DNA of 64,000 nt from Wenzhouxiangella sp. (GTDB lineage Bacteria > Pseudomonadota > Gammaproteobacteria > Xanthomonadales > Wenzhouxiangellaceae), in contig JAZBPT010000044.1 in the NCBI GenBank assembly GCA_036351755.1, forward strand, positions 2,685-66,684, read 5' to 3'. Below the pieces are notes generated by a model. That model had not been told where the DNA came from and made no database searches. It saw only the letters and a list, made by a program, of their open reading frames with translations. How positions within the stretch are numbered: the stretch's first letter is position 1; every line of letters begins with the position of its first letter. Shown piece by piece: positions 1,565-27,863 of the stretch. The position numbers were made by a program, and so were the translations under genes.

Positions 1565-2557
<993 letters not shown>

Positions 2558-2583
2558 TTATCCGGGTGGTGTGCGATGCGGGC

Positions 2584-2589
2584 ATTATA
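2584..2589 (-). promoter_or_regulatory. Putative sigma70 -10 element for hemB
   Basis: Perfect TATAAT on the minus strand about 30 nt upstream of the hemB start. No good -35 element is visible. Confidence 0.4.
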
Positions 2590-2674
2590 AGCTTGCGCCG
2601 CGATCGGGTCGGAGTCGAGATGGCCCTGGGTCGGCAGGATGAATACGATTGCCAGGCGGAGTAGAATGCGACCC

Positions 2675-2896
2675 ATGGCTGCGAATATCAAAGAAGCGCT
2701 GCGCACCCTGGCCGATCAACTCCCCGAGGGAGCGACCTGGAGGGATGTCGCCTATGAGGCCTTTGTCCGCCAGGAGATCGAAGCCGGTCTGGAAGAAGCC
2801 CGCCGGGGCGAGTTCGCCACGGACGACGAAGTGAAATCTGCCTTCGCCAAATGGGGTGTGCAGGTTGAAGCTGAAGTGGACACGCCGCGCCCTTGA
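2675..2896 (+). CDS. Putative antitoxin of a RelE/ParE-type toxin-antitoxin pair
   Basis: Small acidic ORF (LPEGATWRDVAYEAFVRQEIEAGLEEARRGEF) overlapping the downstream RelE/ParE gene. The start is uncertain (2639, 2666 or 2675). Confidence 0.7.
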   Translation: MAANIKEALRTLADQLPEGATWRDVAYEAFVRQEIEAGLEEARRGEFATDDEVKSAFAKWGVQVEAEVDTPRP

Positions 2897-3140
2897 GCAA
2901 CTCGCCGAGGCGCAGGACTATATCGCCCAGCAAAATCCCGCCGCTGCCGGCCAGGTCGGCGAACGGATCGCCGAAGCTACCCGCAAGTTAATGACCCAGC
3001 CCCGTATGGGCCAGCGGGGGCGAGTGGCCGGAACCCGGGAATGGGTCATTGGGCGCACCCCTTACTTCCTGGTCTACAAGCTGGAAGACGACGAGCTGAT
3101 TATCCTGCGCGTCATCCACGGCAAACAGCACTGGCCATGA
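2865..3140 (+). CDS. RelE/ParE family toxin
   Basis: Family pattern LKWTRRALEQL...YIAQQNPAAA...PRMGQRGRVAGTREWVI...PYFLVY...IILRVIHG. Start is TTG 2865 or GTG 2856. Confidence 0.88.
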   Translation: MKLKWTRRALEQLAEAQDYIAQQNPAAAGQVGERIAEATRKLMTQPRMGQRGRVAGTREWVIGRTPYFLVYKLEDDELIILRVIHGKQHWP

Positions 3141-3232
3141 CCTTGATTCAGCGCTGCCTGAGTACCCGGGACATTAGCGGCTTGAAGGTTATTCCCTGGG
3201 AAAATGCCGCGGTGTGTTCGGGGCCGTGATGG

Positions 3233-3273
3233 CGCATCGGCCGATGCGTTGCGCTTCGCTCCACGCATCCTAC
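3233..3273 (-). repeat. GTAG-type REP-like palindromic element (truncated REP doublet)
   Basis: The minus strand reads GTAGGATGCGTGGAGCGAAGCGCAACGCATCG (GTAG foot plus hairpin). It overlaps a perfect 16-bp palindrome CGCATCGGCCGATGCG at 3233-3248. Confidence 0.6.
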
Positions 3274-3385
3274 CGCTCTAATTCTCACGCCTCAGCACCG
3301 CAGCATCGTACGTGGCCCACTTTGGTGGATGTAAAACCCGTCTGGTGGCGCCCCTCTTGGCATGGGGCCAGATGGATGTTAGGAC

Positions 3386-4249
3386 ATGTGTATGAAGATG
3401 CTTGTATTTGTGGGTCTCTCGTTGATTGCTTCATCATGTTATGCGAGCGATCAAGAATTGGCGGCCATATTGGACGGCGCAATTGGGGGGAACTCTGACT
3501 GCGAGGAGTTGTTCCACCAGTATTCCTTGTCTGATTCGGTTGACTGTTTTAATGCCAGTTACGAGAGTTCAGAGCACGACCTAGTCAAGTCGGTAGCGCG
3601 CCACGGAAGTTCTTTAGCTTACCAGCGGATGGGCGAGCACCAAAAAGCTCTTGATGACATGCAGGAGGCTATTCGTCTGGCTCATTCGTACAAGGAAGCT
3701 GTTCTCTACATGGCCAGATTGCTGGCCGGCTATAGCCGGCTGCTGCTGTTTCACGATCAGAGGGATCTTGCCGATAGGTATCTAAAGAACTCCAGAGACT
3801 ACTACGAAACCTATATCAAGGTTATGGGCTCGGATCACCCGGAGACTGGGTTCCTGGCTTATCAGGTGAGCGCTTCGTTATATCTGGAAGCTGGTGATTT
3901 CTCGGAGGCAAGGGCTTACGCGAGAAAGGCGCTAAATAAGGCGGCTTTGATGCCAGAGGTTGTACCATCCACGACCCATCTGTTGCTGGCGAAGCTTGAA
4001 GCTGCAGTTCAGAGGCCTGACGAAGCGCGTGTCGCTGCCTGGAGGGCGTGCAGGTCTGATGGGAATGAGCCTGCTGTGGTGGAAGGGTGCATATTGGCTG
4101 CCCGTGGTGCCAAGGAAGAAGGCAATGAGAATTGCGCGAGTCGAGCTCTTTCAAGAGCCCTGGAAAAGTCTGAATCCGCCAATTGGGAGGATGATGATGT
4201 GGCGATGGAAATTGAAAGTTTGATCCGTGAAATCGGGAATGCCAATTGA
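3386..4249 (+). CDS. Hypothetical exported TPR-like protein of lower GC content
   Basis: 287 aa with an N-terminal hydrophobic signal-like segment and TPR-like helices (AYQRMGEHQKALDDMQEAIRL, LYLEAGDFSEARAYARKAL). Visibly more AT-rich than its neighbours. Confidence 0.65.
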   Translation: MCMKMLVFVGLSLIASSCYASDQELAAILDGAIGGNSDCEELFHQYSLSDSVDCFNASYESSEHDLVKSVARHGSSLAYQRMGEHQKALDDMQEAIRLAHSYKEAVLYMARLLAGYSRLLLFHDQRDLADRYLKNSRDYYETYIKVMGSDHPETGFLAYQVSASLYLEAGDFSEARAYARKALNKAALMPEVVPSTTHLLLAKLEAAVQRPDEARVAAWRACRSDGNEPAVVEGCILAARGAKEEGNENCASRALSRALEKSESANWEDDDVAMEIESLIREIGNAN

Positions 4250-4497
4250 GCTGGAATTCTGAATAGTTCGAACTCGGTGCTTTGGAACTGCACCAACTGT
4301 TCAAGTTGAGCAATTACCCGATACTCAGGGTCTCCCATGTGTCCGATTATGTCGCCTCGATAACCTCGGGCTCAGGCTCCTTGGGAAGGATCGGCGGCAG
4401 TTTCTTTTGACCCAGCGCAGCGCCCGCGAAGTGCCGAGCCCCCCAGTGCGTCCGGTACCATGACCCTCGCCCAAGCCTCCGAATCCCGCAGCGCCGA

Positions 4498-4537
4498 ACC
4501 AAAACACCAAAACACCAAATAACCAAGAAGCCAATTT
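4498..4537 (+). repeat. Degenerate 8-bp tandem repeat (ACCAAAAC-like, about 5 units)
   Basis: ACCAAAAC ACCAAAAC ACCAAATA ACCAAGAA GCCAATTT. Confidence 0.6.
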
Positions 4538-4573
4538 CCCCAACCTCGACGCCGAGATGCTAATCTCAACGCC

Positions 4574-5476
4574 ATGCCAGCCACCATCCGCATTCCCGAA
4601 ATGCGCCCATCCGAGCCGGTCGACGTGCCGGTCGGGGACATTGCCCGGCTGGCCGAGTTCATCGACGCTCACGATCGCCTCGTCGTGCTCACCGGCGCCG
4701 GCATCTCCACGCATTCGGGTATTCCCGCCTACCGCGACGGCAGCGGGCGCTGGCTGCAGCGTCGGCCGATTCTTTTCCAGGATTTCATGCGTTGCGAGCA
4801 CACCCGCCGGCGCTACTGGGCGCGCAGCTACTTCGGCTGGCCGGTGATGGCGAAAGCCGGGGTCAATCCCGCGCACGAGGCGCTGGTGGCGCTCGAGCGC
4901 GGTGGTCGGCTCGCGCAGGTGGTTACCCAGAACGTCGACGGCCTGCACCGGCGCGCCGGGCAGGAGGGCCTGGTCGAGCTGCACGGGCGCCTCGACCGCG
5001 TCCATTGCCTGGACTGTGGTACGGTCGGCTGCCGCGGCGAGCTTCAGCGGCGGTTGGCCGAACTCAACCGCGACTGGACCGCCGATGTGCAGGGCATCAA
5101 CGCCGACGGCGACGCCCGGCTGGACGATTCGGACTGGCCGGGCTTTCGTGTGGTCGGCTGCCCCGCATGCGGCGGTACGCTCAAGCCGCAGGTCGTGTTC
5201 TTCGGCGAAACGGTGCCGCGGCAAACGCATGAAGCGGTCGGACAGGCCCTGTCGCGGGCCACCGCGCTGCTGGTCGTGGGCAGTTCCCTGGTGGTCGGTT
5301 CGGCCTATCGCCTGGTGCGCGACGCCGCCGCCCGAGGCCTGCCCGTGGCGGCCGTCAATCGTGGCCGAACGCGGGCCGACGAGCTGCTGGCCTTCAAGGT
5401 CGATGCCGGTTGCGAGACGGCGCTGTCGGCGGCCGCCGATCTTTGCCTGGGCCGGGGTTCAGGCCGCGGTCGATAG
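4574..5476 (+). CDS. NAD-dependent protein deacylase, Sir2 family (class II, SIRT4-like)
   Basis: Motifs TGAGISTHSGIPAYR, RRRYWARS, TQNVDGLH, ELHG, Zn ribbon CLDC...CPAC, LKPQVVFFGE and GSSL. Confidence 0.93.
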   Translation: MPATIRIPEMRPSEPVDVPVGDIARLAEFIDAHDRLVVLTGAGISTHSGIPAYRDGSGRWLQRRPILFQDFMRCEHTRRRYWARSYFGWPVMAKAGVNPAHEALVALERGGRLAQVVTQNVDGLHRRAGQEGLVELHGRLDRVHCLDCGTVGCRGELQRRLAELNRDWTADVQGINADGDARLDDSDWPGFRVVGCPACGGTLKPQVVFFGETVPRQTHEAVGQALSRATALLVVGSSLVVGSAYRLVRDAAARGLPVAAVNRGRTRADELLAFKVDAGCETALSAAADLCLGRGSGRGR

Positions 5477-20067: not shown

Positions 20068-21039
20068 TTACCGGATCCTCGTCGCCCGGTAGAGCAGGAG
20101 CAGGAACAGCGGTACACCGATCAGGGCAGTGAGTACGCCCACGGGCAGTTGGCGCGGGCCCAGCAGGCTGCGTGCGGCGGTGTCGGCCAGCACCAGGAAG
20201 CCGCCGCCGAACAGGGCCGAGGCGGGCAGCAATACCCGGTGATCGGCGCCGACGAGCAGGCGCATCAGGTGCGGCACGATCAGGCCGACGAAGCCGATCG
20301 CCCCGGCCAGGGACACGGCCAGGGCGGTCAGCAGCGAGGCGATGACGTAGATCTCCCAGAATCGAGCCCGCGCTGACTCGCCGAGCAGGGCGGCCTGCAG
20401 TTCACCGCCGCTGAGCACGTTGAGGCTGCGCGCGCGCAGCCACAAAAGGCCGACCCCGGCGGCCAGCGGCATCAGCCACCAGGCCGACAGGCTGGTGTAG
20501 CTCAGATCGCCCATCAGCCAGTAGAGCATCGAGCGCAGGCTGGCGTCGGACCCGGTCGCCAGGATCAGGGAGATGACCGCGCCCCAGCCGGCGGCGACCA
20601 CCACGCCGGTAAGCAGCACGCGCGTGGTGCTCCATGGCCCCCGCCCGCGTGCCAGTACAAAGACGATGACCATGGTCAGCAGCGACCCGGCGAAGGCCAG
20701 CGCCGGCACCGGCAGGAAGCTCAGGCCGAAGCTCATGCCGATCAGCGCGAAGGCGGCCGCGCCGCCGGAAAGCCCGAGGACGTAGGGGTCGGCGAGCGGG
20801 TTGCGGAGCAGGACCTGCATCAGGCAGCCGGCCTGCGCGAGCAGGGCGCCGGTGACCAGTGCCGCGATCGCCCGGGGAATGCGCAGTTCGCCGATGACGC
20901 GCCGCATGGCCTCGTCGGCGGCGAAGGGCCAGGCCCAGCCGCCGCTGCCCCAGCTGGCGGCCAGCAGCAGGGCCGCCGGGGGCAGGAGCAGGAGGCCCGC
21001 CCAGGCGATCAGCGTCTTCGTGACTGGTGCACTCGCCAT
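20068..21039 (-). CDS. FecCD/BtuC family ABC permease
   Basis: Motifs LRIPR, LRNPLADPYVLG, IGFVGLIVPH and LPVGVLTALIGVP. Start placed at MASAPV. Confidence 0.9.
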   Translation of the reverse strand: MASAPVTKTLIAWAGLLLLPPAALLLAASWGSGGWAWPFAADEAMRRVIGELRIPRAIAALVTGALLAQAGCLMQVLLRNPLADPYVLGLSGGAAAFALIGMSFGLSFLPVPALAFAGSLLTMVIVFVLARGRGPWSTTRVLLTGVVVAAGWGAVISLILATGSDASLRSMLYWLMGDLSYTSLSAWWLMPLAAGVGLLWLRARSLNVLSGGELQAALLGESARARFWEIYVIASLLTALAVSLAGAIGFVGLIVPHLMRLLVGADHRVLLPASALFGGGFLVLADTAARSLLGPRQLPVGVLTALIGVPLFLLLLYRATRIR

Positions 21040-21112
21040 GAATTGATTACCATTCGAGACAGTTGAATCTTTCCGCGGCCCGGTATGATAGCCGGCCGCG
21101 ATGACCATCACC

Positions 21113-21625
21113 ATGATTGATCCGGACGGTTTCAGACCGAATGTCGGGATCGTGCTGGCCAGGGAAGACGGGCGCGTTTTCTGGGCGCGCCGTGCCGGCA
21201 AGGATGGCTGGCAGTTCCCGCAGGGCGGCATGAACACCGATGAAACGCCCATCGAAGCGATGTACCGAGAACTCGGCGAGGAGACCGGGCTGACGCCCGA
21301 CCACGTCGAGGTGCTGGGTCAAACCCCTGGCTGGCTGCGCTATCGCCTGCCCCGGCGGTATCGGCGTCGCCATCAGAAGCCCGTGTGCGTGGGTCAGAAG
21401 CAGGTCTGGTTCCTGCTGCAGTTCCTGGCCGACGACAACGCCTTTGACCTCGAGGCCGCCGACAAGCCGGAATTCGACCGCTATCGCTGGGTCGACTTCT
21501 GGTATCCCGTCAGGCACGTGATTCCCTTCAAGCGGCGCGTCTATGCCAGGGCGTTGAAGCATCTCGAGCCGAAGCTGTCGGAAATCTCGAATCCGAAGCA
21601 CCAGATTCCAAACAAATTCGAATGA
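21113..21625 (+). CDS. rppH: RNA pyrophosphohydrolase
   Basis: Motifs [20 protein letters not shown], Nudix box [20 protein letters not shown] and PEFD. Confidence 0.95.
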
Positions 21626-23189: not shown

Positions 23190-23966
23190 TCAGTCCAGGG
23201 CATCGATTGCCGCGATCCACTGCTCGTCCCGTTCGGCCTCGACCGCCGGCGGGATGACCAGGGTGGTGTATTCCTTGTAGCGCGCCGACGGCAGGTCGGC
23301 CAGCGTCATTCGCTCGGCCCGGAAATCCTCGATCGGCAGCTGGGCGGCCTCGTAGAGGATGACGGGCGTGTCCAGGGCGTATCGGCGCGAAAGTTTGTCG
23401 ACCAGTACCTGAAGCCGCTTCGGGTCCGGTTCGAAGCCCACGCAGTCGAGATTGCCGGCCAGCGCCACCTGCCACAGCAGCACCAGCGCGGTCGGATCGA
23501 GCGAGTGCTTGTAGGCCAGAAAGCGGGTTGCCTCGATGGACTGCACGCCCCGCTCGCCCGGATCGAGTCCCAGGTCGGCGTATAGGCAGGCTTCAGCCGA
23601 AATGCCCGGTTCCATGCGTGCGGGCAGCCCCGCGGCGCGGACCTGCGCAATCGCTTCGTGCGGCACCTGGGCGAATACGCCGGGGTGCCCGTAGAACACC
23701 GTGCAGACGCGCTCTCCGGCCGATACCGCTTCGATGATCAATGCCTTCATGGCCCGGTAGGTCTCGCGCCGGTCCGTGCGATCGTCGTAGTAGTCCGTGA
23801 GGTCGACGGCGTCGGGGCGCCGGGATGCGATCCAGTCGAAGGCGAGCGCGTCGGCCAGGACGAATACCGTGTCGGCGGCCAGGATCTCGCTGACGGCACG
23901 CTCGGTGATGTGGCGCCCCAGCTGGATGCCGCAACCGACCACCACCAGTTCGCCGTGTTGCCGCAT
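23190..23966 (-). CDS. Split-borosin backbone alpha-N-methyltransferase (SonM/OphMA-like, tetrapyrrole-methylase fold)
   Basis: Motifs GELVVVGCGIQ, DYY...RRETY (catalytic Tyr/Arg/Tyr), FYGHPGVF, MEPGISAEACLYADLGLDPG, QSIEAT.F, LLWQ, YEAA.LPI and TLVIPP. No fused core peptide. Confidence 0.9.
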   Translation of the reverse strand: MRQHGELVVVGCGIQLGRHITERAVSEILAADTVFVLADALAFDWIASRRPDAVDLTDYYDDRTDRRETYRAMKALIIEAVSAGERVCTVFYGHPGVFAQVPHEAIAQVRAAGLPARMEPGISAEACLYADLGLDPGERGVQSIEATRFLAYKHSLDPTALVLLWQVALAGNLDCVGFEPDPKRLQVLVDKLSRRYALDTPVILYEAAQLPIEDFRAERMTLADLPSARYKEYTTLVIPPAVEAERDEQWIAAIDALD

Positions 23967-23969
23967 GGA

Positions 23970-25706
23970 TCAGTCGACGCGCTGGGGCTCGGCGACGACC
24001 ACGCTGTTTCGTCCTCCGCCCTTGGCCCTGTAGAGCGCTTCGTCCGCGCGCTTGCGCAGGCTCTCCAGGGCTTCGTCCGGCGCCAGCTCGGCCACGCCGA
24101 AGCTCATCGTCAGCGGTTTTTCGTTGCCCCCGTACTGGATCTCGGCCAGGTCATTGCGAACCTGTTCCAGCCGTTCGAGAACCGGCTCGAGCTGGCTGTC
24201 GGGTATGCAGACGGCGAATTCCTCGCCGCCGATCCGGCCCACGTGACCGAGCCCGGGGAAGTTCTCGCACAGCACGCGGGCGACCTGTCGCAGCGCCTTG
24301 TCGCCGGCGATGTGGCCGTGCTCGTCGTTGACCTGCTTGAAGTGGTCGATGTCGCCCAGGGCCAGGACCAGCGGCTGGCTTCTCCGGTGCGATTCCTCGA
24401 CCAGCATTCGGGCGGTGTCGAAAAAGCGGGTGTGGTTGCTGACCCGGGTCAGCCCGTCCAGTTCGGAGAGGCGCCGGTAGTGCCGCCGTTCGCGCAGGAC
24501 GTGGATCAGCAAGAGCACGAGAATCAGGAACAGGAATACCGCAAAGCCGGTGGCCATCCAGCGCACGCGTGCCTGCTGCCGACGTGATTGCGCCTCCAGT
24601 TCGGCAACGCGCTTTTGTTCCCGAAGTAGTTCGAGTTCCTGCTCCTGGCGCTGCATGTCGAATTCGACTTCCAGGATGGCGAGCCGGCGCGAACGGTCTT
24701 CGTCGATGAATCGGTCGCGGGCCTCGCTGTGCGCCACCATGTGGCGATAGGCTTCGGCGAATTCCTCGCGCTTGGCTTGTTGCTCGGCAACCAGCCGGTG
24801 CAATTCTGACTTGCGATGCCAAAGTTCTCGTTCGTCGGTGCGCTCGATCAGCACCTGGGCAAGTTCGATTGCTTGCTTGCTCTCGCCACGTTCCGCGGCG
24901 AGCTGTGCCTGGAGGTGTTCCCCGGTCAGCACGCCGTCCGCCCAGCCGGCCTGGCGAAGTCGTTCCAATCCCCTGTCGGTCCAGCGTCGTGCCGCCGCCA
25001 GATCGCCTCTTTCGAGCGCGAGATGGCCCAGCTCCAGCTCGCTGGTGCCGGTATAGACCTGGTCGTTCACGTCCAGGCAGAGCGACAGTGCGTTGCGTGC
25101 TGCGACTTGCGCTTCCTCGTAGCGCTCGGCGTAACGATAGGCGACAGCAAGACGCTGCCCGGCCTGGCATTGCTGACTTTTGTCGCCGGACTGTCCGGCG
25201 ATGGTCATGGACTGCGTTGCGTAGTCGATCGCGCGTTCGTGGTCACCGACAATGCTGTGCACGAACCCGGCCAGGCTCAGAATACGGGATCTCTCGACGA
25301 GATCATCGCTTTCGCCGCTGAGTTCGAGTGCCGACTTCAGCTGTGCAAAGCCCCATTCGTGTTGCCCGACATTGATTCCCAGATTGGCGGCGAGCCGGAG
25401 TGCTCGCAGCCGCTGATCGTCGCTGATCGGGTTCCCGAGCAGTTCCTTGATCTGGTCAATGGCCTTGCCGTAGTCGCCCTGCAATGCCAGGTTTCGGATG
25501 TGGAGCAAGCGAATCTCCACGCGTTGACGAGGCGTGGCCTCGTCGAGTCGCTTCATCAGTGCATCGATGGCCGGTTGTGAAGCGGGTACTGCTTCGGTCA
25601 CGCTGAGATGACGAGCTCGCTCGATCGCTTCGCCCAGGTTGTCGTCCTGGGCGAACGACGAACCGCCCAGCAACGCGAGCAGAAGCATTGCCGTACGCAG
25701 GGTCAT
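23970..25706 (-). CDS. Membrane-anchored TPR-GGDEF diguanylate cyclase (paralog A)
   Basis: Signal peptide (MTLRTAMLLLALLGGSSFA), TPR-like helices, coiled coil, TM segment (GFAVFLFLILVLLLIHV), DIDHFKQVND.HGH..GD and GGEEF. Confidence 0.92.
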   Translation of the reverse strand: MTLRTAMLLLALLGGSSFAQDDNLGEAIERARHLSVTEAVPASQPAIDALMKRLDEATPRQRVEIRLLHIRNLALQGDYGKAIDQIKELLGNPISDDQRLRALRLAANLGINVGQHEWGFAQLKSALELSGESDDLVERSRILSLAGFVHSIVGDHERAIDYATQSMTIAGQSGDKSQQCQAGQRLAVAYRYAERYEEAQVAARNALSLCLDVNDQVYTGTSELELGHLALERGDLAAARRWTDRGLERLRQAGWADGVLTGEHLQAQLAAERGESKQAIELAQVLIERTDERELWHRKSELHRLVAEQQAKREEFAEAYRHMVAHSEARDRFIDEDRSRRLAILEVEFDMQRQEQELELLREQKRVAELEAQSRRQQARVRWMATGFAVFLFLILVLLLIHVLRERRHYRRLSELDGLTRVSNHTRFFDTARMLVEESHRRSQPLVLALGDIDHFKQVNDEHGHIAGDKALRQVARVLCENFPGLGHVGRIGGEEFAVCIPDSQLEPVLERLEQVRNDLAEIQYGGNEKPLTMSFGVAELAPDEALESLRKRADEALYRAKGGGRNSVVVAEPQRVD

Positions 25707-25736
25707 CGGAGTGAACGGAGGGGCAAGGTGAGCGAA

Positions 25737-25949
25737 TCAGTCGTGAGCGTGGATCGTGCTGTTGATGAGATGCACATCACGCAGACCGGACAGTCGACGC
25801 ACTTCGTCGAGGTCCTTGCTCATCATGGCCTTGCGCGCCTCGTCGGGAATTCCCCGCTTTTTCATGACGCCGTCCGGGTCCTTTTCGTACTCCGCCGCGA
25901 GTTCGGCGTCGCTGCCCAGATCCTTGAGAAGTTGCTTCAGTGCTTCCAT
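25737..25949 (-). CDS. Split-borosin precursor peptide (SonA-like: borosin-binding-domain leader plus C-terminal core)
   Basis: 70 aa: MEALKQLLKDLGSDAELAAEYEKDPDGVMKKRGIPDEARKAMMSKDLDEVRRLSG-LRDVHLINSTIHAHD. Strong SD GGGAGG before ATG 25949. Helical LG.DA.L...Y...P..VM...G pattern. Same strand and cluster as the methyltransferase. Confidence 0.85.
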   Translation of the reverse strand: MEALKQLLKDLGSDAELAAEYEKDPDGVMKKRGIPDEARKAMMSKDLDEVRRLSGLRDVHLINSTIHAHD

Positions 25950-25975
25950 GGTCGTACCTCCCTTTGGGTTCATGC

Positions 25976-26004
25976 ATTCTAATCGCTCGCCGGAGCGTTT
26001 GCGA
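25976..26004 (-). promoter_or_regulatory. Possible internal sigma70 promoter for the precursor gene
   Basis: TCGCAA-N17-TAGAAT on the minus strand; the -10 element lies 26 nt upstream of the precursor ATG. The -35 match is weak. Confidence 0.3.
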
Positions 26005-26078
26005 TCATCGGCCAAGTCGAGGGTTCTAGGAAGCGCAGCCGGCGTCCGTCCGAGCCGGCGAGCCGGCCGCTTCCCAAC

Positions 26079-27863
26079 CTATTGCGCGTCGGCAAACACG
26101 ATTCGGTCGCGGCCGTCGTTCTTGGCTCGATAGAGGGCTTCATCTGCGCGCAGTCTCAGCGAGGCGAGCGACTCCCCGGGTCGGGCGCGGGCCACGCCGA
26201 AGCTCATCGTCAGCGGCAGGTCGTCGCCCCCGTAGTCGATGCGGGCAAGGGCTTTTCGCCAGCGCTCGAGCAGTTTATCGACGGCATCGCGATCAAGGCC
26301 GGGCAGGCAGGCGGCAAACTCTTCTCCCCCGACCCGGCCGAGCCGGGCGCCATCCGGACATCGGCTGCGGAGTGCGCGGGCAACGCCCCTGAGCGCGCGA
26401 TCGCCCGCCATGTGTCCGAAACGATCGTTGACGCGCTTGAAGTGATCGACGTCCCCGATGATCAGGGTCAGGGCATGTTCGTCGTCCTGCGCGTGCTTGA
26501 GCATTTCGGCGGCGGCCTGGAAGAACCGGGTGTGGTTGTCGATCCGGGTCAGGGAATCGAGGCGCGAAAGTCGACGAAAGTGCTGCCGACCCCGCAGGAC
26601 GTGAGCGAGCACGAGGAGCAGCGCGATCAGCGCCAGTACGGCGGCGCCGGAGGCGAGCCAGCGTATTCGCCGGTCGGTGCTTCGGGATGCCGCTTCCAGT
26701 TCCGCCGCGCGGCGCTGCTCACGGAGCAGGGAGAGTTCCTGCCGCTGCGTCCGGGTATCGAAGACGACCTGCAGATAGGCCAGCTGACGGGCCCGATTCT
26801 GATCGAGCAGGCGCCGACGCGCTTCGAGACTTTGCTCCATGTGTTCCACGGCATGGCGGAATTCACCACCGGCAGCCGCTGCCCTAGCCAGCATTTCCCG
26901 CGCCTCGGCCACGTAGTCCCAGACCTCCTGATCCCGCAGGCGCGGCAGGGTGTCCTCGAGCAATTCGCGCATGTGATCAAGCCGGTCGGTTTCCTCGAGG
27001 AGTCGCGCTTTGTAGAGGCTCGCTTCGGCCAGGCCCGGACCGTAGCCGGTGGCTTCGAGTCGTTCGAAGGCCTGCGCGAAAACCTCCTCGGCGCGATCGT
27101 ACTCGCCGGCATGGCGCAACAGGTCGGCGAATCCGCTCTGGATGGTCCCGGTGAAGAGATCGTCGCCCGATTCGAGGCAGATCGAGACTGCCTCGCGGTA
27201 GTGCTCGAGCGCGGTATCGTATCGGCCAGCCGCCTTGTGGACGAAAGCGAGGCGGCCGTGGATGACGCAGCGGTCTCTCATCGTGCCGTGGGAACGCGCG
27301 TTCTCGACGGCCGCGTGAGCGTATTCGGTGGCGGTTTCGTATTCGCCGACGAGCGCGTAGAGATAGGCGGCCAGGCTGAACGGCGCGTAGATCTTTTCGT
27401 CGCCCTCGAGCCGGTCTATCAGTTCCAGGCCACGAATGATGTACTCGAAGGTCTCTTCCCACTTCCTCGCGATCATGGTCAGGTTGGCCGCGCGCCGGTA
27501 GGCGCGGGCGCGCTGGACGTCCCGCATCGGCCCGGCGAGTAGTTCTCTCAGCGTTTCCAGTCCGGCCTCGATGTCGCCTGCCAACGCCTGGTTCCGGGAG
27601 ACGAGCAACCAGTAGTCGACCCTTTGGTCGCGCGTCGCCTGCGGCAGGTGTCGGGCCAGTTCGTCCAGCAGGGCCTGGGATTCCTGCCAGGGGGCGGAGA
27701 CGTTGAGCTCGCGCGCCCGGTCGAGCTTCTGGCCGAACTGCTCGGTCGTCATTTCTTCTGCCCGGACTCCGGCCAGGGACAGGAGCGCGCAAAGCGTCGC
27801 CCCGGCAAGCAATCCGAAAGCCGTTCTGGCGCCGGCCGCCTTCAAGAAGGGATTCCGCGGCAT
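26079..27863 (-). CDS. Membrane-anchored TPR-GGDEF diguanylate cyclase (paralog B)
   Basis: Signal peptide ending in VRA-EE, TPR-like helices, coiled coil, TM segment (GAAVLALIALLLVLAHV), DVDHFKRVND.FGH..GD and GGEEF. Confidence 0.92.
   Translation of the reverse strand: MPRNPFLKAAGARTAFGLLAGATLCALLSLAGVRAEEMTTEQFGQKLDRARELNVSAPWQESQALLDELARHLPQATRDQRVDYWLLVSRNQALAGDIEAGLETLRELLAGPMRDVQRARAYRRAANLTMIARKWEETFEYIIRGLELIDRLEGDEKIYAPFSLAAYLYALVGEYETATEYAHAAVENARSHGTMRDRCVIHGRLAFVHKAAGRYDTALEHYREAVSICLESGDDLFTGTIQSGFADLLRHAGEYDRAEEVFAQAFERLEATGYGPGLAEASLYKARLLEETDRLDHMRELLEDTLPRLRDQEVWDYVAEAREMLARAAAAGGEFRHAVEHMEQSLEARRRLLDQNRARQLAYLQVVFDTRTQRQELSLLREQRRAAELEAASRSTDRRIRWLASGAAVLALIALLLVLAHVLRGRQHFRRLSRLDSLTRIDNHTRFFQAAAEMLKHAQDDEHALTLIIGDVDHFKRVNDRFGHMAGDRALRGVARALRSRCPDGARLGRVGGEEFAACLPGLDRDAVDKLLERWRKALARIDYGGDDLPLTMSFGVARARPGESLASLRLRADEALYRAKNDGRDRIVFADAQ

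Follow-up and report, generated by a model that had tools for sequence, protein, structure and literature searches.

The window analysed here is a stretch of 64,000 nucleotides from contig JAZBPT010000044.1 of a Wenzhouxiangella genome recovered from a microbial mat (GCA_036351755.1, an 85%-complete metagenome assembly in 315 contigs). Within it, four minus-strand genes form a compact cluster of 4.7 kb (23190–27863), and the shortest of them, preA (25737–25949), is a candidate precursor gene of the split-borosin kind. A GGGAGG Shine-Dalgarno sequence (25962–25957) precedes ATG 25949 with a 7-nt spacer, and the frame closes at the stop codon 25739–25737, giving a product of 70 aa. The automatic ORF list instead opens the same frame at TTG 26015 and arrives at 92 aa. 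The original prediction preferred the shorter call, and several lines of evidence agree with it. The start at ATG 25949 is favoured because a length of 70 aa is called in all 11 close homologues in the protein database, because a GGAG-type Shine-Dalgarno sequence lies 6–9 nt before the equivalent methionine in 12 of 12 homologues from related genomes, and because the alignment of the product to SonA (E 5e-8) begins at residue 2. The 66 bases that only the 92-aa call would translate also hold a conserved DNA block (about 25963–26009, minus strand), which points to the same start. This block, which is shared by three species, includes a -10-like TAGAAT (25976–25981); it shows hardly any change in G006 and is for the most part preserved in G018, and in the comparison with these two genomes conservation is lost further upstream. 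It is probably the promoter and 5′ UTR of the preA operon, as judged from its conservation; a scan for consensus promoters and terminators made no call on the minus strand within the cluster, this block included. In other members of the genus the region upstream of preA is a different one, in which TATAAT/TAGAAT-like hexamers and 5′ hairpins occur as well.

The gene for a TPR-GGDEF cyclase, here cyclase ‘a’ (23970–25706, minus strand; 578 aa), follows preA after 30 nt. Pfam identifies a GGDEF domain (7.6e-33) and TPR_12, and hydropathy predicts a signal peptide, a periplasmic TPR domain of about 350 residues, a transmembrane segment (379–408) and a cytoplasmic GGEEF domain. The GGEEF motif is present, and there is no RxxD at the canonical I-site position. 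Only 3 nt after the stop codon of cyclase ‘a’ starts the gene for a borosin α-N-methyltransferase of 258 aa (23190–23966, minus strand), a homologue of SonM. With spacings of 30 and 3 nt, preA, cyclase ‘a’ and the methyltransferase probably form one operon, and their order is the same in all seven complete loci (six other genomes and this one). Among split borosin clusters no partner domain is more frequent than GGDEF, found in 56% of more than 1,600 (bioRxiv 10.1101/2021.12.24.474128). Upstream of preA, at a distance of 129 nt, lies the gene for a second TPR-GGDEF protein, cyclase ‘b’ (26079–27863, minus strand; 594 aa, by Pfam and topology). It is a paralogue of ‘a’ (TPR domains 36% identical) and is confined to G000, G006 and G018, the G018 gene being of a different lineage. 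Directly after its stop codon there is a GC-rich imperfect palindrome (26030–26075, minus strand) that has no U-tract and whose folding energy is not significantly better than that of shuffled sequences (z -1.5). Across the genus three TPR-GGDEF lineages, a, b and c, can be distinguished (window genes; L017, L019, L020). The TPR domain of lineage c is nearer to b (48–51%) and its GGDEF domain nearer to a (62–68% vs 54–58%), a pattern that suggests domain-wise mosaicism or very unequal rates.

According to Pfam the cluster holds nothing besides the two cyclases, preA and the methyltransferase; the scan of the neighbouring genes revealed no protease or exporter gene in it, and NCBIfam has no model for either precursor or methyltransferase. 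In the genus the cluster is always found between an M28 peptidase gene and a DUF6164 gene. These flanking genes directly abut in three congeners without the peptide (L023, L024, L025), and the cluster is therefore an accessory indel island, the peptidase, NUDIX and FecCD/ABC genes being backbone. The M28 aminopeptidase gene, which is convergent with that of the methyltransferase, was considered as a maturation protease and discarded as a member of the cluster, since it abuts DUF6164 in the three island-less congeners and is not adjacent to the cluster in G033 or G024. Further along the backbone, the FecCD permease ORF (20068–21252, minus strand) overlaps the NUDIX gene (21101–21625, plus strand) by about 150 bases and is matched by Pfam only from residue 112 onwards; the true start of FecCD is therefore probably downstream of the listed one.

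Homologues of preA are present in 12 of 24 other genomes of the genus and in one genome of another family in the order, and 400 genomes drawn evenly from the class yielded four weak, leader-only matches. In the search for related loci the nearest named records, and the only ones, were Wenzhouxiangella sediminis XDB06 and Wenzhouxiangella sp. 15190; a search of sequencing runs found DNA matching the window in microbial-mat and other metagenomes, and listed no RNA run containing it. W. sediminis XDB06 (NZ_QUZK01000037.1) has the same four-gene layout and a precursor that is 90% identical, with an identical 15-residue core. A literature search combining Wenzhouxiangella with borosin found nothing. 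The genome to which the window belongs carries a second split-borosin cluster on another contig (L015; contig C57, 494–5064), consisting of a 7TMR-DISM-GGDEF sensor cyclase (494–2485), a flavin amine oxidase (2482–3996), a short precursor with a borosin binding domain and a hydrophobic tail (about 4061–4225) and a methyltransferase (4246–5064) 45% identical to the first. This second borosin pair is also present in G006 (L022).

The preA product divides into a leader and a core. The leader (residues 1–55; 25785–25949, minus strand) had been aligned without gaps to SonA in the original prediction, and phmmer against PDB chains confirms this for residues 2–56 of both proteins, with E values of 5e-8 to 1e-7 over seven SonA constructs. 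Beyond LSG, the remaining 15 residues show no alignment with the SonA core, again as had been stated. An AlphaFold2 model built on 76 homologues places helices at 2–13, 15–23, 25–32, 36–43 and 47–54 (pLDDT 76–83), a five-helix bundle ending in LSG. In a Foldseek comparison of this model with the PDB, SonA chains take the first 19 places (TM up to 0.90, rmsd 1.0–1.7 Å over 49–56 residues), after which come LigA (1bou_A, rank 22) and the binding domain of OphMA. The LigA-like helical bundle that the original prediction had proposed to look for is thus present in the model. By alignment and predicted fold the leader is a SonA-like borosin binding domain, of the kind described for SonA (PMC8429565, PMC10549244).

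It could be argued from the likeness to LigA that preA encodes a LigA-type small subunit of an extradiol dioxygenase, or else that it is a decaying, non-functional ORF. The product has a weak match to Pfam LigA (E 0.011, below the cut-off), 28 of 30 members of its core class touch LigA at E values up to 1, and SonA itself was deposited as a ‘LigA domain-containing protein’. Both versions are nonetheless scarcely credible: among the neighbours scanned, in or near the cluster, none has a LigB-type domain, SonA chains rank ahead of LigA in the structural comparison, and frame, start, Shine-Dalgarno sequence and core are all conserved, with synonymous-only change in the core.

The enzyme encoded two genes downstream argues for a borosin pathway. 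It belongs to PF00590, and its best match is SonM (E 1.4e-64), followed by OphMA and dbOphMA (E 1e-40), with tetrapyrrole methylases far off (E 1e-4). In the alignment the equivalents of SonM Y58, R67, Y71, Y93, F99 and F179, the importance of which has been shown by mutagenesis (PMC8429565), are all kept, and so is the YGHP motif. The equivalents of E173, L176 and Q178 in the top clamp of SonM are changed, which might be expected of an enzyme acting on a different core. The protein ends at 258 aa with no fused domain, and the core sits on the precursor. The locus therefore combines a borosin binding domain, a discrete methyltransferase with its catalytic residues and a short core right after the binding domain, the features of a type IV precursor system. 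On this evidence from sequence and modelling, preA very likely encodes the precursor peptide of a type IV (split) borosin pathway; the earlier identification as a borosin precursor holds, for the split kind, with a SonA-like leader and a SonM-type methyltransferase in the same operon.

The closest characterised pair is SonA/SonM of Shewanella oneidensis MR-1 (SO1478–SO1481; PDB 7LTC, 7LTE, 8T1S, 9CH7), the product of which is Shewanellamide A. Both systems have a precursor of 70–71 aa with a five-helix borosin binding domain ending in LSG and a core of 15–16 residues with a terminal Asp, a discrete PF00590-type α-N-methyltransferase with the same catalytic Tyr/Arg set, and a GGDEF protein, and both are devoid of a protease or other tailoring enzyme. 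By contrast, the leaders share only about 35% identity and the cores no alignable similarity: the methylated Leu63 and Ile65 of SonA, and the directing Tyr62, have no counterparts in preA. The top clamp of the methyltransferase also differs from that of SonM. The gene order here is precursor, cyclase, methyltransferase, with the second cyclase upstream, whereas the published order in Shewanella is methyltransferase (SO1478), precursor (SO1479), cyclase (SO1480) and efflux pump (SO1481); the cation efflux gene is absent from the preA island. The shewasin A system of Shewanella amazonensis (SamA1/SamM1/SamP) likewise joins a short precursor fused to a borosin binding domain with a discrete methyltransferase, but that cluster also encodes a dedicated pepsin-like peptidase, and methylation there occurs once, on Phe52 (bioRxiv 10.1101/2024.01.09.574750), and the preA locus has no such peptidase.

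The core (residues 56–70; 25740–25784, minus strand) is the predicted substrate of the methyltransferase and the probable released 15-mer, as suggested by the model, the class motif and a codon comparison. It is disordered in the AlphaFold2 model (pLDDT about 40). The residues to which attention had been drawn in the original prediction (V59, H60, L61, I62, T65, I66, H67, H69 and D70) are present as stated, and three His in 15 residues are unusual (binomial P about 0.004, calculated post hoc for a His frequency of 2.2%). However, the core is not one of a kind but a variant of a widespread and already catalogued class. A profile search of 1.84 billion representatives recovered 147 relatives of the precursor, the tails of which fall into classes. 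The preA core class accounts for 36 of the roughly 70-aa matches and extends over dozens of clusters at 50% identity; SonA-like tails belong to a class of their own. The class pattern reads Ser-Gly-Leu, two variable residues, a hydrophobic, a polar or cationic and a second hydrophobic residue, T/S-N-S/G-T/S-I/V, one variable residue, then A/S, H/Y and D/E. In an alignment of 30 class members, Gly is conserved at position 55 in 28, Leu at 56 in 26, Thr or Ser at 62 in 28, Asn at 63 in 25, Ser or Gly at 64 in 27 and Ile or Val at 66 in all 30. The Ile at position 62 of preA is therefore a peculiarity of its subclade. Among the residues that had been proposed for methylation, conserved hydrophobics occur only at positions 66 and 59.

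The same core class is already listed, as predictions, for Dokdonella in supplementary file 3 of the 2024 RODEO borosin dataset (bioRxiv 10.1101/2024.01.09.574750). The Dokdonella sp. entries have a leader of the same family, a core centre of the form T-N-S/H-T/I-I and an ending of the Ala-Tyr-Asp type; the searched parts of the supplements contain no Wenzhouxiangella entry. The preA subclade is set apart at four positions: 60, 67 and 69 are His, against a prevailing Lys/Arg, Lys and Tyr in the class, and 62 is Ile, against Thr. Compared with W. sediminis, the 15 core codons show four synonymous and no non-synonymous differences, and the 55 leader codons nine synonymous and seven non-synonymous ones. 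This synonymous-only pattern, a comparison of sequences, indicates that the core is translated and under purifying selection. By the same kind of evidence it belongs to a conserved class rather than being a hypervariable singleton. Across related genomes the core is conserved as a class, and its His pattern is not.

This last result bears on a second proposal of the original prediction, that the His-rich core with its H-x-H-D terminus could be a metal-binding peptide, that is, a chelator of Zn, Cu or Ni or a metallophore. The core does contain three His and two Asp among its 15 residues, and in the closest clade H60 is kept in 11 of 12 sequences and H69 in 12 of 12; at position 67, however, no more than 6 of the 12 close relatives and 8 of the 30 class members have His, and 13 of the 30 have Lys instead. 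Across the class, position 69 is His in 15 of 30 and Tyr in 10, with Phe and others in the remainder, and position 60 is His in 17 of 30, mostly within the close clade, and Lys, Arg, Tyr or others elsewhere. No fixed set of metal ligands is therefore maintained among the homologues, and the way in which His alternates with Lys/Arg or with Tyr in the alignment is more easily reconciled with polar, cationic or aromatic contacts than with a fixed metal site. A cation efflux gene is part of the son cluster of Shewanella, and some crystals showed Zn at the SonM dimer interface (PMC10549244), but this Zn sits on the enzyme and not on the core. The island contains no metal transporter or other metal-handling gene, and the FecCD/ABC genes are also found beside the empty site where a genome is without the cluster. 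A metal-binding function of the core is accordingly very improbable.

The preferred reading, a split-borosin precursor, allows a mechanism to be proposed by homology with SonA/SonM. The leader (residues 1–55) would dock onto the SonM-type methyltransferase, the disordered core would enter the active site, and the enzyme would transfer methyl groups from SAM to one or a few backbone amide nitrogens within residues 56–70. If a guess is to be made, Ile/Val66 and position 59, also conserved, suggest themselves first. In SonM the choice of site depends on a bulky residue before it and on contacts with the clamp, rules that are not transferable (PMC11751858); as the top clamp also differs here, sites and number of methylations cannot be predicted from SonA. 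Housekeeping peptidases encoded elsewhere would probably remove the leader just after LSG. A cut at this point is predicted because LSG is common to SonA and the preA class and because Shewanellamide A starts directly after it (PMC10549244), a single precedent. By analogy, the product would be a linear 15-mer of 1739.907 Da plus 14.016 for each methyl group. Because the core differs from that of SonA, this is expected to be a different borosin product, which upholds the original prediction on this point.

The presence of a cyclase gene between precursor and enzyme at every complete locus, together with the predicted periplasmic location of its TPR domain, raises the question of what such a product might do. 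The methylated 15-mer could be a ligand of one or both periplasmic TPR-GGDEF cyclases and so set c-di-GMP levels, a proposal that extends the split-borosin reading and does not compete with it. Such an arrangement would bear a loose analogy to TPR peptide receptors, the conserved aromatic or His residue and the acidic C-terminus serving as recognition element; core and TPR domain would co-diversify, and the cyclase encoded upstream would respond to another variant of the peptide. Core and TPR domain do diverge together within the genus. Identities to the window for core, TPR domain, GGDEF domain and methyltransferase are 100, 95, 92 and 90% in G006; 67, 68, 86 and 80% in G018; 40, 35, 66 and 73% in G013; and 33, 33, 67 and 81% in G003. 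However, the comparison rests on seven loci, all of them kin, and a faster pace of evolution is usual for sensor domains. Core subtypes and sensor lineages also go together, one subtype with lineage ‘a’ and another with lineage ‘c’, and the second borosin pair of the genome also adjoins a sensor GGDEF protein, of the 7TMR-DISM type. Against this, the island lacks an exporter gene, and in the case of Shewanellamide A it was the cell pellets, not the supernatants, that contained the product (PMC10549244). The literature search returned no paper linking borosins to cyclase activity, beyond the 2021 co-occurrence statistic. A complex prediction for the TPR domain of cyclase ‘a’ (20–385) and the precursor tail (41–70), run without controls, scored 0.02 and is counted neither for nor against this idea. 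Such a role in signalling is tentative and, on balance, rather doubtful.

Shewanellamide A is, to our knowledge, the only known bacterial borosin product, and we know of no function for it. The preA locus adds a well-defined example of a second, conserved class of borosin core. Its methyltransferase, a trans-acting backbone N-methyltransferase with a different core preference, may be of some interest for peptide engineering. W. sediminis XDB06, with its identical core, offers a ready experimental system for the methylation sites, the product and the link to the cyclase. If the signalling role were true, it would give split borosins a biological role, in which a self-made signal is sensed outside the cytoplasm and converted into c-di-GMP.
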